DNA of 64,000 bases from an uncultured Chloroflexia bacterium (GCA_963781705.1 CAWAGP010000010.1:392782-456781); one strand, 5' to 3'. Positions 424 to 13,686 are shown, counted from the first letter of the stretch. Translations and numbers: made by a program. Notes: a model not told the origin generated them from the letters alone.

Positions 424-640
424 ACTTCTGACATTTGTCGCCGCTGACCGACCTTAATCGCCTCCCAGCAGCCAACTTCTGACATTTGTCGCCGATGGAC
501 GACACTACGCCGGTCGTCGGCCTCCCCGGCACCTTTCCGAAGCCTGATCACGCTCAAGCTGAGCGTGGCGGCGCCTTCCGTACCCGTCGGATGGTTGACG
601 GATTGCGCGTACGGTCGACAGAGCCGACATCTGACAGAAA
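424..640. repeat. Hairpin repeat cassette A: two direct units (424-456, 475-507) plus an inverted unit (610-640)
   Basis: Exact 20-bp repeat ACTTCTGACATTTGTCGCCG at 424-443 and 475-494, each followed by a CGAC(C/A)(T/C)TA box giving a GTCG-N8-CGAC hairpin; a reverse-oriented copy TACGGTCG-N7-CGACATCTGACAGAAA lies inside the end of the HTH-nuclease gene. Confidence 0.8.
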
Positions 641-1288
641 CCAGATGCCACCGATCGCCCCGTCCGGTTGGCGAAGCCAGCGGCGCAGCGCCCGCGAGCC
701 CTCCGGCAACGACGCACGCAACGCGCCAGCATGACGCTCGACCTGGCGCCGACAGGTCCGATCTTCGGGCAGGACAAGTACGCGACCAACGTGCCGGGCG
801 TGCCAGCCGAAGCGCTCACGAACGACCTGAGCCGCCAGCCGGCATTTCACGTCGAACGGTCGAAGCGTGCCTTCGACGCTCGCGAGTTCTGACTTGACTT
901 CGATCACAAGCAGTGTCCGGCTGGTGGCGTGCCAGGCGACCACGTCGATCGAGCCTCGCTCGCCATAACTCGAGTACGAGACCTCGACGCGCACCTCCCA
1001 GCCGTGGCGTTGGAGAAGCCCGGTCATGGCGCCGACCAGCCGCGCATGTGTCTCGTCGATCAGTCGGTCCCCTGCTGCCCCGCGGTAGGAGGCGTTCAGC
1101 AGCAGGCGGATTTCGAGCGCGCCCAGGCATCGCTCGAGCTCGTCCAGGCGAAGATCGCCCAATCGCCCGGCTTCCACGTCGATCACTTTCCAGCGCCCCA
1201 CGTGCGCACGGGCTGCGAGATCCGCCTGCGTTATCCGCGCGCGATGCCTGACGACTCGCACCAGCCGGCCGAGTTGCCGGTCGTTCAC
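554..1288 (-). CDS. XRE-family HTH protein fused to a PD-(D/E)XK (DUF559/Vsr-like) nuclease domain
   Basis: N-terminal HTH (ITQADLAARAHVGRWKVIDVEAG); C-terminal E...SIDVVAWH...LLVIEVKS motif. Confidence 0.85.
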   Translation of the reverse strand: MNDRQLGRLVRVVRHRARITQADLAARAHVGRWKVIDVEAGRLGDLRLDELERCLGALEIRLLLNASYRGAAGDRLIDETHARLVGAMTGLLQRHGWEVRVEVSYSSYGERGSIDVVAWHATSRTLLVIEVKSELASVEGTLRPFDVKCRLAAQVVRERFGWHARHVGRVLVLPEDRTCRRQVERHAGALRASLPEGSRALRRWLRQPDGAIGGIWFLSDVGSVDRTRNPSTIRRVRKAPPRSA

Positions 1289-1304
1289 CCTCAGATGATC
1301 GGCA

Positions 1305-1370
1305 CGGCCGCTTATCGGCCGCTCATCGGCCGCTTATCGGCTGCCTATCGGCCGCTCATCGGCTGGTTAC
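1305..1370. repeat. 11-bp tandem repeat x6 (consensus CGGCCGCTYAT) between the divergent HTH-nuclease gene and fabG
   Basis: Units cggccgcttat, cggccgctcat, cggccgcttat, cggctgcctat, cggccgctcat, cggctggttac read directly. Confidence 0.9.
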
Positions 1371-10145: not shown

Positions 10146-11321
10146 TTATGACTGCGCCGCGAATGAGAACGCGCGTGGGCCGCGATCGGGCAGGGCAAAG
10201 AGCAGCCACATCACAGCCGTCACCACGAACGGACAGAACGGCCAGGGCAGCCAAGCGAGTAGCGGAACCAGCAAGAACAATCGACGGCCGTATGCAGCTC
10301 CCAGGGCTGCAGGCACGATCAGAATTGTCAGATAGTGAACCCACATGAGTGGCGAAAGGAGCAGCGTCGCCGTAAGGGTGACCGCAAAGCTGATTGCGAC
10401 GTCGCGACGCAAGCTTAGGAGAATCGCCCCAACCGCCATCACGTATCCGCACACCAGGAACACAAACGCGAGGGATTGCGGCAGGCCGAGGCGGAGCATC
10501 GTCGATCCAAATTCATGGTTGTCATGCACGCCCATTTCGTAGCTGACGTTGCGGAGGACTTGAACCCATTCGAGCCACGGCCTCAATCCGACAAACGGCA
10601 AGCTCACAGCCACGATTACGAGCAGGCTGCCGGCTAACCAGATGAGCGCGCGCCATTGCCTGCGCAACACCCACCAGCCAGCGACTACTCCGATCCAGGG
10701 ACGAATGGTCAACGATGCGGCGATGGCAAGGCTCCCGATCGGCTTGTCAAGCCACCGCCAGCAAACGACGGCCAAGAAGGTCACGATGAGGCTGACGTTG
10801 CCAAACTCCAAGTCGTAAATGACAGGAGCGCTAACGATCGCGACTGCGAAGATTGCCAGCTTGATCGAGCGCGGGACAGGCATCAGGCCGCAGGTCAAGC
10901 CCAGCAGGACCAACCGGAAGACCAACCAGACGGCCGTGGCGGCGCTCAAGCCTAATGAAGTCAGCGGTACGAGTGCTAGTGACAGAACAGGCGAGTAGAC
11001 GTACAAGCCGGCAGTGCCCGAATGCCACGGGCCGTCGAGTGTCCTTGCCTGGTACGGCGACCCGGTGGCAACGAGGCGCACGGCTGCGTCGTAATAAGCC
11101 TGGAAGTCGACGGGCGATCTGCCGTCCCGCCGTGTCAGCCACCAGAGGCTGAGTGCTGCGCCGGCGACGACGACGGCGATCGCGACGAGGATCAGGCGAT
11201 CCTTCCAGGCATGGGCAGTTGGAGCCGTAGCGCGCGCGTCCTCGAAGTCCGTGATGCGTTCGGAGCCGTCCGGAACGCGCTCGTTGTGGAGCGAAGGCTC
11301 CTTGTAGCGCGTCCTGAACAT
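10146..11321 (-). CDS. GT87/DUF2029 family GT-C membrane glycosyltransferase
   Basis: VDFQAYYDAA, YVYSP, FGNVS, SPLMWVHY, many TM segments; AAGGAG RBS before ATG 11321. Confidence 0.88.
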   Translation of the reverse strand: MFRTRYKEPSLHNERVPDGSERITDFEDARATAPTAHAWKDRLILVAIAVVVAGAALSLWWLTRRDGRSPVDFQAYYDAAVRLVATGSPYQARTLDGPWHSGTAGLYVYSPVLSLALVPLTSLGLSAATAVWLVFRLVLLGLTCGLMPVPRSIKLAIFAVAIVSAPVIYDLEFGNVSLIVTFLAVVCWRWLDKPIGSLAIAASLTIRPWIGVVAGWWVLRRQWRALIWLAGSLLVIVAVSLPFVGLRPWLEWVQVLRNVSYEMGVHDNHEFGSTMLRLGLPQSLAFVFLVCGYVMAVGAILLSLRRDVAISFAVTLTATLLLSPLMWVHYLTILIVPAALGAAYGRRLFLLVPLLAWLPWPFCPFVVTAVMWLLFALPDRGPRAFSFAAQS

Positions 11322-11426
11322 CTGCGGGTGCTCCTTGGTAGCGGTGACGCGAGGTAGTCGCGGACTTTGGCGGACGGATGATAGGCGCGCCTGGGCGGTC
11401 CGCCACGTACGGTATTCTGCCGGAGC

Positions 11427-12395
11427 ATGCCGCGCCCCGATTTCTTCCTCGTGGGCACCTTCAAGGGCGGCTCGACGGCGCTCTACGAGGCACTCCGGCG
11501 CCACCCCCAGGTCTTCATGCCGTTCCACAAGGAGCCGCTCTATTTCGGCGACGATCTGACGCGGCGCTACGGCCGCTTCACGCTCGAGGACTACCTGCGT
11601 CTCTTCCGTGACGCGAAGCCCGGCCAGCGGGTGGGCGAGGCGAGCACCTGGTACCTGTACTCGACGTCGGCCGCCGGCGAGATCCACGACTTCAACCCTG
11701 AGGCCCACATCCTGGTCGTGCTGCGTAACCCGGTCGACGTGATGTACGCGCAGCACAACCAGCTCATCTTCAACGTCATCGAGGACATCCCCGACTTCGC
11801 CGAGGCACTCGCCGCCGAGCCCGACCGCCGCGCCGGGCGGCGGATGCCGCCCGGGCCGATCAACGTCGAGAACCTCTTCTATCGCCACAGTGTCCGTTAC
11901 GTCGAACAGCTGCAGCGCTACTTCGACGCGTTCGGCCGCGAGCGCGTGCACGTGATGCTGTTCGATGACCTGCGTGCCGATGGTTCGGCCGTTGTGCGTG
12001 ACTGTCTCGAGTTTCTGGGCGTCGACGCCAGCCTGGCCGCGGCGCCGCCGGCCGCCAACGAGAGTCGCCGCGTGCGCTCGCGGGTCGTCCAGCGACTGAT
12101 CTTCGCGCCCAAGCTGCTGCTGCCGCTCGCCCCAGTGCTGCGCAAGGTGCCGCTGGTGCGCTCGGCGCGCAGCCGGTTGCTCAACATGAACAGCGAGACG
12201 CGGCCGCGCCAGCCGATGGATCCGGCCCTCCGGCGGCAACTGCTCGACGAGTTCGCGCCGCAGATCGAGCAGCTCGGCCGGCTGATCGGCCGCGACCTCT
12301 CGCCGTGGACGCAGGGCGAGCCACTGCCGAAGCCCGAGCCCGGGCCTGAGGCCGAGCCCGAGCCGGAGCCGGAGGCGTCAACAGCCGGCGCCTGA
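11427..12395 (+). CDS. Sulfotransferase (Sulfotransfer_1)
   Basis: FFLVGTFKGGSTAL, KEPLYF, GEASTWY, LRNPVD. Confidence 0.92.
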   Translation: MPRPDFFLVGTFKGGSTALYEALRRHPQVFMPFHKEPLYFGDDLTRRYGRFTLEDYLRLFRDAKPGQRVGEASTWYLYSTSAAGEIHDFNPEAHILVVLRNPVDVMYAQHNQLIFNVIEDIPDFAEALAAEPDRRAGRRMPPGPINVENLFYRHSVRYVEQLQRYFDAFGRERVHVMLFDDLRADGSAVVRDCLEFLGVDASLAAAPPAANESRRVRSRVVQRLIFAPKLLLPLAPVLRKVPLVRSARSRLLNMNSETRPRQPMDPALRRQLLDEFAPQIEQLGRLIGRDLSPWTQGEPLPKPEPGPEAEPEPEPEASTAGA

Positions 12396-12485
12396 ACTCG
12401 CTGACACCCCGGGCCGGCGCTCAACCACTGGCCCGCGTGAAGCGACCGGACCGCGGCCGCCTGAACCTGTCGCTGGCGCGTCCGA

Positions 12486-12707
12486 CCGTCATTTGTCGAT
12501 CTCACCGACACTAACCGGCCCGACGAGCGGCTCTTCCGTCATTTGTCGGCCGGGTCGGACCTTATGCGGCTCTGGGGCCTCGTTATGCGGCTCCATGGCT
12601 TGTTTGGTCGGCGTCGGCGCGCCGTCTGAGCGTGGAGTAGGCCCGTCAGAGCGTCAAATCGGTGCCGGAAGTCGCGTAACGTCGGCATAGCCGACATTCG
12701 ACGGAAG
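12486..12707. repeat. Hairpin repeat cassette B, gene-less homolog of cassette A
   Basis: Direct units 12486-12513 and 12533-12564 (CCGTCATTTGTCG core) plus an inverted unit at 12677-12707; 12626-12706 aligns ungapped to 559-639. Confidence 0.78.
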
Positions 12708-12780
12708 TGTGCGTGCCCAGGTGACGAGGCACGCGCCCAGGGTGACCGTGCAGCACCCGCAACTGCGATCATGCGTGGCA

Positions 12781-13686
12781 GTGAAACGACCCGAGATCTT
12801 CATCGTCGGCGCGTTCAAGGCGGGTACGACCGCGCTGTACGAGTACCTGCGCGCTCATCCCAACATATTCATGTCGACGCCCAAGGAGCCGATGTACTTT
12901 GGCGGGGACCTGACGCCGCGCTACAAGCGCATGAGCGAGGCCGAATACCTGGCGCTGTTCAAGCGCGCGGCCGACGGACAGCACGCCGGCGAAGCGTCAC
13001 CGTGGTACCTGTACTCGACCGCTGCTGCGCGCGAGATCCACGACTTCAACCACGCGGCACGGATCATCGTCATGCTGCGCAACCCGGTCGACGTGATGTA
13101 CTCGCAGTACAGCCAACTCGTCTTCAACCAGCGTGAGGACCTGACCGATTTCTCAGCGGCCCTGGCCGCCGAGCCCGACCGCCGAGCCGGCCGCCGACTG
13201 CCCGCCGGCGCCATCCGTCCCGAGGCGCTCTTCTACCGCCACAGCGTGCGCTTTGCGGAACAGGTGCAGCGGTATCTCGACGTGTTCGGTCGGCCGGGCG
13301 TCCACTTCGTCGTCTTCGACGACCTGGTCGCCGATCCACGCGCGGTCTATCGCGCAACGCTCGAGTTCCTGGGCGTCGACCCGACTTTCCAGGTCGACCT
13401 GTCCGTCTACAACCCCAACCGCCGTGCACGATCCGGCCGGTTGCAGGGGGCGATCTTCAACCCGCCGCCAGCGCTGCGCGGCGTGGTCGGCCGCCTGCGC
13501 CAGATGCCCATCGCGCATCGGCTGCGCGATGCGCTGGTGTCGGCCAACAGTGCCCAGGCGGCCCGGCCGACGATGGACCCGGAACTGCGCCGTTCGCTGA
13601 CGGCCGAGTTTGCGCCGCAGGTAACCGAGCTGGGCGAGCTGGTCGGCCGGGATCTGTCCGCCTGGAGCAAGGTCGGCAGCACGTGA
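12781..13686 (+). CDS. Sulfotransferase (Sulfotransfer_1), tandem paralog of 11427-12395
   Basis: FIVGAFKAGTTAL, KEPMYF, GEASPWY, MLRNPVD. Confidence 0.92.
   Translation: MKRPEIFIVGAFKAGTTALYEYLRAHPNIFMSTPKEPMYFGGDLTPRYKRMSEAEYLALFKRAADGQHAGEASPWYLYSTAAAREIHDFNHAARIIVMLRNPVDVMYSQYSQLVFNQREDLTDFSAALAAEPDRRAGRRLPAGAIRPEALFYRHSVRFAEQVQRYLDVFGRPGVHFVVFDDLVADPRAVYRATLEFLGVDPTFQVDLSVYNPNRRARSGRLQGAIFNPPPALRGVVGRLRQMPIAHRLRDALVSANSAQAARPTMDPELRRSLTAEFAPQVTELGELVGRDLSAWSKVGST

Follow-up and report, generated by a model that had tools for sequence, protein, structure and literature searches.

Two sulfotransferase genes of an uncultured Chloroflexia bacterium are separated by a group of short repeats that recalls the 3' end of a nuclease gene 12 kb away. 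What is this segment, and how does it come to stand there without the gene? The original prediction, drawn from the DNA letters alone, called it a gene-less copy of the nuclease cassette. We addressed the question in the window (the whole 64,000-nt stretch of DNA analysed), in the genome to which it belongs (2.67 Mb in 10 contigs, 68% G+C, 90.9% complete; designated G000) and in other genomes of the genus, likewise given G numbers.

Copy B belongs to the family of the nuclease gene's 3' module

The segment, copy B, is intergenic and lies at 12483..12707 on the plus strand. Its parts run in the order unit 1, unit 2, spacer, inverted unit, and an intact nuclease ORF is absent from 12483..12707. 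Its features, those of its neighbours and those of the gene-linked copy (copy A) are:

425..640, plus strand: copy A of the module (units 425-461 and 476-512, box 559-568, inverted unit 604-640), overlapping the 3' end of the nuclease gene
554..1288, minus strand: XRE-HTH / PD-(D/E)XK nuclease gene P0001, 244 aa, with the codons from F217 on inside the module
11427..12395, plus strand: upstream sulfotransferase gene (Pfam PF13469/PF00685)
12437..12480, plus strand: GTGAAGCGACCGGAC start and LLLPLAP-like fragment left from a third sulfotransferase gene, by comparison with empty sites and G014
12483..12519, plus strand: direct unit 1 of B, CGACCGTCATTTGTCG...CCGACACTAACCGGC, with an internal imperfect palindrome GTCG..CGAC
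12533..12570, plus strand: direct unit 2 of B, 50 nt past unit 1, with an arm that pairs with the inverted unit
12562..12603, plus strand: 21-nt local tandem duplication TTATGCGGCTC... in the spacer of B, missing from the G014 ortholog of B
12621..12709, minus strand: decayed homolog of the ~30 final nuclease codons, its reading frame interrupted by TGA
12626..12635, plus strand: central box CTGAGCGTGG of B, at a fixed position in the family; its other strand gives codons P-R-S of the decayed tail
12671..12707, plus strand: inverted unit of B, decayed counterpart of the nuclease codons after W216
12781..13686, plus strand: downstream sulfotransferase gene (Pfam PF13469/PF00685), GTG start at 12781 by homology to relatives, ORF open from 12709

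The predicted architecture was recovered in every measured part. The motif CCGTCATTTGTCG occurs at 12486-12498 and again at 12536-12548, a spacing of 50 nt, compared with a period of 51 nt in cassette A (424-452 and 475-503), and the arms at 12533-12550 and 12690-12707 are complementary over 18 nt at 83%. Without gaps, 12626-12706 is identical to 559-639 at 53/81 positions, and the inverted units of B and A match at 27/34. In the homologous frame on the minus strand B reads TLPSNVGYADVTRLPAPI*RSDGPTPRSDG against WFLSDVGSVDRTRNPSTIRRVRKAPPRSA* in A, a CGA>TGA change making the stop (as aligned, ...LPSNVGYADVTRLPAPI*R...PRS in B against ...FLSDVGSVDRTRNPSTIRR...PRSA* in A). B therefore retains a decayed copy of the last ~30 nuclease codons. 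The other gene-less copies do likewise: in each, the homologous frame is broken by stops or shifts but still shows traces of (L)PSNVG...N...PRS.

We evaluated in several ways whether this resemblance could have arisen by chance. Among 20,000 random 81-mers from the window, the only one to reach 53/81 was the self match. A local alignment of 385-700 with 12400-12770, the comparison proposed at the outset, scored 37 and gave a z of 5.9 against 500 dinucleotide shuffles (mean 21.1, sd 2.7), but the best shuffle also scored 37, so this alignment is a weak test taken alone. The cleanest of the chance tests is a leave-out profile (nhmmer) built from copies C, D and F, all of which lie outside the window. 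It recovers B at 12486-12707 with an E of 1.5e-25 and A at 425-640 with an E of 2.6e-22, and finds no further sites in the 64-kb window beyond reverse-strand echoes of A and B. The covariance model R1, built from eight copies with B among them, gives 136 bits over 12531-12709. The leave-out profile and a profile search of the genome together establish, as predicted, that B and the 3' module of the HTH-nuclease gene belong to one family, B being a member without a gene.

Eight copies share a core of two inverted units

The genome profile search found eight copies of the module, A and seven gene-less ones; A is the only one attached to a gene. A copy measures ~170-225 nt: one or two 37-nt direct units, then a variable spacer of ~100 nt in which the GAGCGTGG box has a fixed place, and a single inverted unit. 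The unit (~37 nt) follows the pattern TTCCGTCA-nn-TGTCGG-n6-CCGAC-nTTAnGCGG, also cTTCCGTCAnnTGTCGGn6CCGACnTTAnGCGGg, and contains a small palindrome of its own. Unit 2, the ~100-nt spacer and the inverted unit form the core in every copy, and the distal unit is often doubled with a period of 50-51 nt: five copies (A, B, C, D and F) have two direct units and three (E, G and H3, the last with diverged units) have one. The terminal inverted repeats thus bound a short non-coding element, as is characteristic of MITEs.

The spacers differ among all compared copies and are weakly conserved apart from GAGCGTGG. Allowing at most one mismatch, this box was present in 26/30 gene-less and 8/9 gene-linked copies of the genus and in 5/39 reverse-complement controls, a count somewhat favoured by the fact that the copies were gathered with a model containing the box. 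Each of the eight G000 copies is intergenic, in most cases with co-directional neighbours, and the module faces either way with respect to them (about 4 forward, 2 reverse, 1 between convergent genes). A weak profile match at C10:604990-605153 represents a different subtype, a gene-less copy of the p890 type at C10:604947-605156. The p890 gene type thus has one gene-less copy of its own type, and the A type has seven.

The arms co-vary above chance

Pairing between the arms is maintained above chance across the genus. In 39 copies, each taken on its better-scoring strand, 78.3% of arm positions form Watson-Crick pairs, compared with 71.0% after shuffling of the partners, where the highest of 500 values was 73.4%. 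RNAalifold applied to the eight copies pairs unit 2 with the inverted unit through 25 pairs, with double changes in seven of them; CGG/CCG to TCA/TGG is one compensatory change in the arm alignment. The original prediction had illustrated co-variation with Box1, which reads TTCTG with inverted CAGAA in A and TTCCG with inverted CGGAA in B. This example is partly borne out but does not extend to a general rule: among the eight copies the position is UA in two, CG in two, UG in two and unpaired in two. Copies C and F mix CTG, GTG, CCG and CGG boxes inside one element.

On the chosen strand, G:T mismatches outnumber A:C mismatches by 79 to 41, a count that the choice of strand biases. The predicted fold of B is modestly better than that of shuffled sequences, with a z of -2.0 for the DNA plus strand (4/200 shuffles as good); for a minus-strand RNA, in which the inverted unit pairs with unit 2, the energy is -95.4 kcal/mol with a z of -2.6 (1/200 shuffles as good).

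The partner is a nuclease-fold protein whose tail is written in the repeat

P0001, the protein encoded by the gene that overlaps copy A, begins with an HTH domain recognised by Pfam (HTH_31, 27.1 bits against a cut-off of 27). For the second domain, no nuclease family of Pfam or NCBIfam scored above its cut-off. PADLOC and NCBIfam returned just the HTH and sub-threshold Cas4/Upx matches, and a sequence-profile search of the PDB gave HTH proteins alone, plus Upx at an E of 0.042. The AlphaFold model has a mean pLDDT of 87.9, with residues 222-238 disordered, and its secondary structure runs H70-94, E98-107, E110-120, E125-131, H139-160, E166-174. In this model the helix, three strands, helix and strand that follow the HTH have the alpha-beta-beta-beta-alpha-beta order of the restriction-endonuclease core. 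In an alignment of 43 sequences E102, D115, E130 and K132 are invariant, leaving the E...D...ExK site intact, and W216, R228 and P230 are invariant or nearly so.

The closest fold neighbours of the HTH are HipB/HigA (Z 11.5-11.6). The nuclease domain (residues ~80-222) superposes on the XisH-type fdxN-element excision factor 2okf_B with a Z of 10.1 and an rmsd of 2.9 over 112 residues; further neighbours, with Z of 8-9.3, are NucS/EndoMS (2vld), AF1548 (1y88), Upx (9wuf) and the RLE of an R2 retrotransposon (9dou), and Foldseek also returns the R2 endonuclease domain, SduA and NucS. XisH and the R2 endonuclease have roles in DNA rearrangement or mobile-element integration. XisH, NucS, AF1548, Upx and the R2 RLE share the fold of P0001 at an identity of only 14-21% and are without its N-terminal XRE HTH and its repeat-encoded tail, and likeness of fold is not proof of common function. 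With its intact E...D...ExK site, this fold and a HipB/HigA-like HTH, P0001 is plausibly a DNA enzyme.

The connection between protein and repeat lies in the tail. The inverted unit of the module supplies the codons right after the last strand (F217 to ~N229), GAGCGTGG encodes P-R-S on the other strand, and the stop codon falls in the spacer. Across the family the tail is conserved as WFLS-x8-RNPSAIRRVR-x3-PRS, although it is predicted to be disordered, and each of the conserved pieces falls on a DNA box retained in the gene-less copies as well: W-F-L-S with ..TTTCTGTCA, R-N-P-S with ..AATCCGTCA and P-R-S with CCACGCTC. Because a disordered tail is conserved in just those pieces, we suspect that constraint at the level of DNA shapes the protein.

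A second type of repeat lies on the other side of the gene, between the nuclease start and fabG:

1303..1366, minus strand: five tandem 11-nt boxes of the CCGATAAGCGG type on the gene's sense strand, a candidate operator

The same GATAAGCG/GTAAGCG box stands upstream of 50/79 family genes, always in the sense orientation, and in 0/77 control stretches; usually there are two direct repeats ~11 nt apart, 30-50 nt ahead of the start. These boxes are probably the operator of the HTH. Their resemblance to the unit boxes and their presence upstream of 50/79 genes suggest autoregulation by the same HTH. We rejected a fourth unit upstream of the nuclease start, where the best local alignment scored 22, likewise at other gene copies, and where the GATAAGCG array is found instead.

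The layout recurs across the nuclease gene family

G000 contains ~9 copies of the nuclease gene, some intact and some broken by frameshift or stops; the broken ones include C10:241769-242361 (frameshift), C10:719801-720508 (two TGA stops) and C2:207016-207537 (truncation). The gene family is turning over inside the genome. In an ungapped scan of six gene copies, five had inverted copies of their own tail codons downstream, with 21-25/36 matches; the scan missed the units of A itself because of an indel. These five gene copies have one or two downstream arms, 51 nt apart when there are two, and the internal palindrome varies with the gene copy (GTCGG/CCGAC in A, TGCC../..GGCA in p890).

A protein search gave more than 1,300 homologs of P0001, and we analysed 76 homologous loci in other genomes, all with records that carry the label Chloroflexota or Candidatus Limnocylindrales. 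The 39 nt that follow the W codon recur in inverted form, at most 330 nt downstream, in 37/76 loci at z>=4 and in 42/76 at an empirical p<=0.005; a clear arm is missing in 39/76, which counts against the reading that we favour below. These figures come from a mapped-arm test that replaced a first pass with a mismatch score of -3, in which many z-scores were weak. The arms are specific to their own gene copy: the mean arm score is 14.0 within a locus and 8.9 between loci, and in 27/76 loci the downstream region of the same locus is the single best match among all 76. Of the 37 loci with clear arms, 18 have GAGCGTGG or its complement in the loop, against 5 and 4/37 in gene-body controls, in both orientations and in some loci as a palindrome. 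We therefore rejected the box as a family-wide feature; it belongs to some lineages only. In G014 (L018), ~10-nt tandem repeats of the GCCGCCGATG type lie to the right of the module, within the 3' part of the orthologous nuclease gene.

These results show a discrete, hairpin-capable doublet that is coupled physically and evolutionarily to one nuclease gene type and that is, as described next, present or absent at orthologous sites.

The sulfotransferase site is empty in several relatives

Between the ends of the flanking alignments, the sulfotransferase gap measures 473 nt here and 51-93 nt in seven relatives (G003, G009, G016, G017, G011, G002 and G008). The original prediction had asked whether such gene pairs in relatives lack the insert. 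Five of the short gaps were read and none contains the element; two more are short by coordinates only. Of the other relatives read, three have other repeat types in the gap and one has an ortholog of B amid unrelated genes. In the former the repeat sits just ahead of the second sulfotransferase gene: G018 (L012) and G005 (L009) have an inverted-repeat element that is related to B but distinct from it, and G012 (L008) has another in the opposite orientation. The occurrence of other subtypes at the same spot suggests a preferred landing place.

The ortholog of B is in G014, where the gap is about 2.8-2.9 kb. It has one direct unit and is identical to B at 118/152 positions (78%), about as conserved as the flanking genes. 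LicD-like and methyltransferase-like ORFs, read by eye from the sequence, also lie in this gap. These extra genes and the remnant of a third sulfotransferase gene in G000 indicate that the cluster has been remodelled. The nuclease protein has no match at the B site in the 31 other genus genomes searched, and tblastn gave none in the G014 gap.

A candidate 15-nt target-site duplication around B, formed by GTGAAGCGACCGGAC (12437) and GTGAAACGACCCGAG (12781), was rejected: its left copy is the decayed start of a sulfotransferase gene, and the ~30 nt after GTGAAGCGACCGGAC match a piece of a sulfotransferase gene that is likewise found ahead of the G014 ortholog of B. On the minus strand, an ORF with a GT87 domain (10146-12239) overlaps the upstream sulfotransferase gene (11427-12395, plus strand) by ~800 nt, and the N-terminal portion of this ORF is probably spurious.

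Gene-less copies arose at least once by loss of the gene, and elsewhere probably in another way

Two further sites bear on the origin of the gene-less copies. At the fabH-fabG junction, the genes overlap by four bases (ATGA/GTGA) in G003 and G009, and in G000 a 995-nt cassette lies exactly there; the nuclease gene also occupies the junction in G007, G014, G031 and G034. In the fabH-fabG gap of G002 (L017 / L119) the module and five tail codons (PIWLLSD) are kept without the nuclease gene; gene loss in place thus produced at least one gene-less copy. In the same gap a minus-strand P-loop ORF (G.PASGKST) stands where the nuclease gene would be. The site of copy F is different: the flanking genes are 13-67 nt apart in 11 relatives, G014 shares the element, and the nuclease protein has no match there in the 31 other genus genomes searched. 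Just upstream of the gene after F, in every relative read (G000:C1 ~238400-238440 and L136-L141), we observed a palindrome ATACTCCCCTGGGGTATGCAG followed by TCCTGCTAnGAT, which could be an operator or an RNA motif.

On balance we lean toward reading B as an old, non-autonomous, non-coding copy of a dispersed REPIN/MITE-like repeat, whose partner is the nuclease and whose mobilisation by that partner would account for its position. The original prediction had left a choice between a non-autonomous derivative and a deletion scar. Its first half is supported. The second half, in its general form, holds that all gene-less copies mark former sites of the nuclease cassette, from which the gene was deleted while the module, which never moves alone, was left behind. 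The G002 fab site is such a case; the whole 995-nt cassette is itself inserted relative to G003 and G009, and several G000 nuclease genes are decaying by frameshift or stops. Against this stand the ends of the copies: all seven gene-less copies of G000 cease to resemble the gene at one point, where the inverted unit ends near the W codon, whereas independent deletions would be expected to leave ragged ends. The sites also argue against it, with a nuclease match at B or F in 0/31 other genomes and tight empty sites in many. As a scar of deletion at its own locus B is thus unsupported, and we consider it unlikely that gene loss explains the gene-less copies in general.

The repeats are widespread in the genus and old

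R1 matches 20/32 genus genomes, with 0 matches in 12 genomes, 31 in G014 and 30 in G031. Because both strands score in this search, the number of copies is about half the number of matches (0 to ~15 per genome). Matches were found in 12/13 genomes with a P0001 homolog of at least 52% identity, against 7/18 others; this cut-off was picked post hoc, the genomes are related, which makes the counts non-independent, and R1 also detects the gene-linked module. G004 enters as one row only in the tallies of sulfotransferase gaps, R1 matches, nuclease-protein search and F site. In two soil DNA runs from one study, 0.10 and 0.05 of the sampled words were present; no RNA run was listed as containing them.

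None of the compared copies are near-identical. The best pairwise identity is 71% among 11 of the ~15 copies of G014 (55 pairs) and 69% among 9 of the ~14 copies of G031 (36 pairs), indicating that any spread is ancient. We saw no transposition event, and no target-site duplication could be defined at three comparisons of filled and empty sites or in the flanks of 33/39 copies; at the fab and F sites, short similar strings occur at both junctions but are ambiguous and not adjacent to the unit ends. B is itself old: its ortholog is found in a relative with ~79% identical genes, and both B and F predate the split from G014. B probably no longer moves. The lack of a definable duplication, identities of at most 69-71%, the age of B and F and the loss of the gene in place in G002 together suggest that the system may be ancient and largely static.

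A model for nuclease and doublet

In the model that we propose, the element is a doublet of ~37-nt units set in opposite orientation around a ~100-nt spacer with a central GAGCGTGG, and its home is the 3' end of XRE-HTH/PD-(D/E)XK nuclease genes. One arm is formed by the codons just past the last structured strand (W-F-L-S...R-N), the stop falls in the spacer, and the other arm lies downstream. The HTH might read the unit boxes, and the nuclease domain might cut at or near the doublet; repair or replication could then copy gene-less doublets to new intergenic sites in trans, much as RAYTs are thought to act on REPINs. The doublet would work as a DNA hairpin or cruciform, not as RNA. Against this model, PD-(D/E)XK nucleases with an XRE HTH are not known to act as transposases. 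Tentatively, and well short of conviction, we suggest that this is a new repeat-and-partner system, in which a nuclease with XRE HTH and restriction-endonuclease fold, and not an HUH or DDE enzyme, maintains and spreads REPIN-like doublets; one arm would be embedded in the nuclease's own gene, and the DNA boxes would dictate the motifs of its tail, an overlapping code that ties each gene to its repeat type.

A model without mobility would treat the units as operators or architectural sites for the HTH or for a host protein, so that the copies form a regulon or help to organise the chromosome and are not selfish. The closeness of the XRE HTH to the HipB/HigA repressors is consistent with this, as are the upstream GATAAGCG boxes, loosely like the unit end TTAnGCGG, and the 78% identity of B to its G014 ortholog, similar to that of the flanking genes. 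However, the copies are present or absent at orthologous sites, lie beside unrelated genes in both orientations and contain decayed coding sequence of the nuclease tail, and an operator would leave the intact active site of the nuclease unexplained. We regard an array of binding sites as improbable. A structured RNA, in which the doublet would fold in the transcript into a long hairpin serving as terminator, mRNA 3' stabiliser or small RNA, with the gene-less copies doing the same for other operons, seems highly improbable: the minus-strand fold of B, the excess of G:T over A:C mismatches and the location of most copies between co-directional genes speak for it, but Rfam 15 at gathering thresholds has 0 matches in the whole 64-kb window, the copies take both orientations to their flanking genes, the folding z-scores are modest and the mismatch asymmetry is biased by the choice of strand.

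Relation to known repeat systems

The mobile-repeat reading invites comparison with REPINs, which are inverted doublets of REP sequences that form hairpins and whose partners, the RAYTs, are REP-associated tyrosine transposases (Bertels and Rainey 2011, PMC3337134). Anatomically the two agree point by point. In both systems two short inverted repeats, each with an imperfect palindrome and 5' and 3' flanks, enclose a weakly conserved spacer; the copies are intergenic, a protein gene is physically tied to the repeats, and gene-less copies outnumber the gene. Each type of gene goes with its own type of repeat, here seen in copy-specific arms with the gene's own region best in 27/76 loci. The gene-linked copy is mostly inherited vertically, as is the fab cassette common to G000, G007, G014, G031 and G034.

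There are also differences. The partner here is an XRE-HTH/PD-(D/E)XK protein, not an HUH/Y1 (IS200-like) transposase; Y1_Tnp (PF01797) had 0 matches in G000, which is 90.9% complete, in a search whose control matched 6/14 named genomes. One arm lies within the coding sequence of the partner, and the partner gene is multi-copy (~9 copies) and decaying. REPINs form large populations, tens to hundreds, of highly conserved repeats, whereas the doublets number eight here, and up to ~15 per genome, with identities of at most 71%. Given a partner that is not a RAYT, the lack of a Y1 domain and the far lower copy number and arm conservation, the element is not a member of the REPIN-RAYT family.

Bacterial MITEs such as the Correia elements of Neisseria, and modular repeats such as the pneumococcal BOX, are 150-230 bp long, with ~35-nt terminal inverted repeats and a conserved central site; repeats of this type have no coding capacity, are intergenic and often co-transcribed, and contain a variable number of one internal module. 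The element resembles them in its size, terminal inverted repeats, central site, lack of coding capacity, intergenic and often co-transcribed location and variable number of internal modules. It differs from MITEs in that no target-site duplication is definable and no DDE transposase is involved, and in that its presumed parent has the module at the 3' side only, the 5' side being formed by the different GATAAGCG boxes. Literature searches returned papers on REPINs and RAYTs but no description of this nuclease family or of these repeats.

Significance

The interest of these results lies in the coupling of nuclease and repeat, and not in copy B itself. Few non-coding features of bacterial genomes are as common as REP/REPIN and MITE-type repeats, and the protein that spreads them is mostly unknown or a RAYT. 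Here a different class of enzyme is tied to repeats, physically and by co-variation, in a widespread and little-studied soil lineage, and the tie is unusually testable because each gene has one arm of its own repeat in its coding sequence. For annotation, the family accounts for 200-nt inserts and for contig breaks in these genomes that would otherwise be puzzling. Should the doublets prove to be mobilised by the nuclease, the REPIN lifestyle would have arisen a second time, independently, and the system would offer a compact module for DNA recognition that is programmable by sequence; otherwise, the family would still be a clear case of DNA-level constraint on a conserved protein tail.
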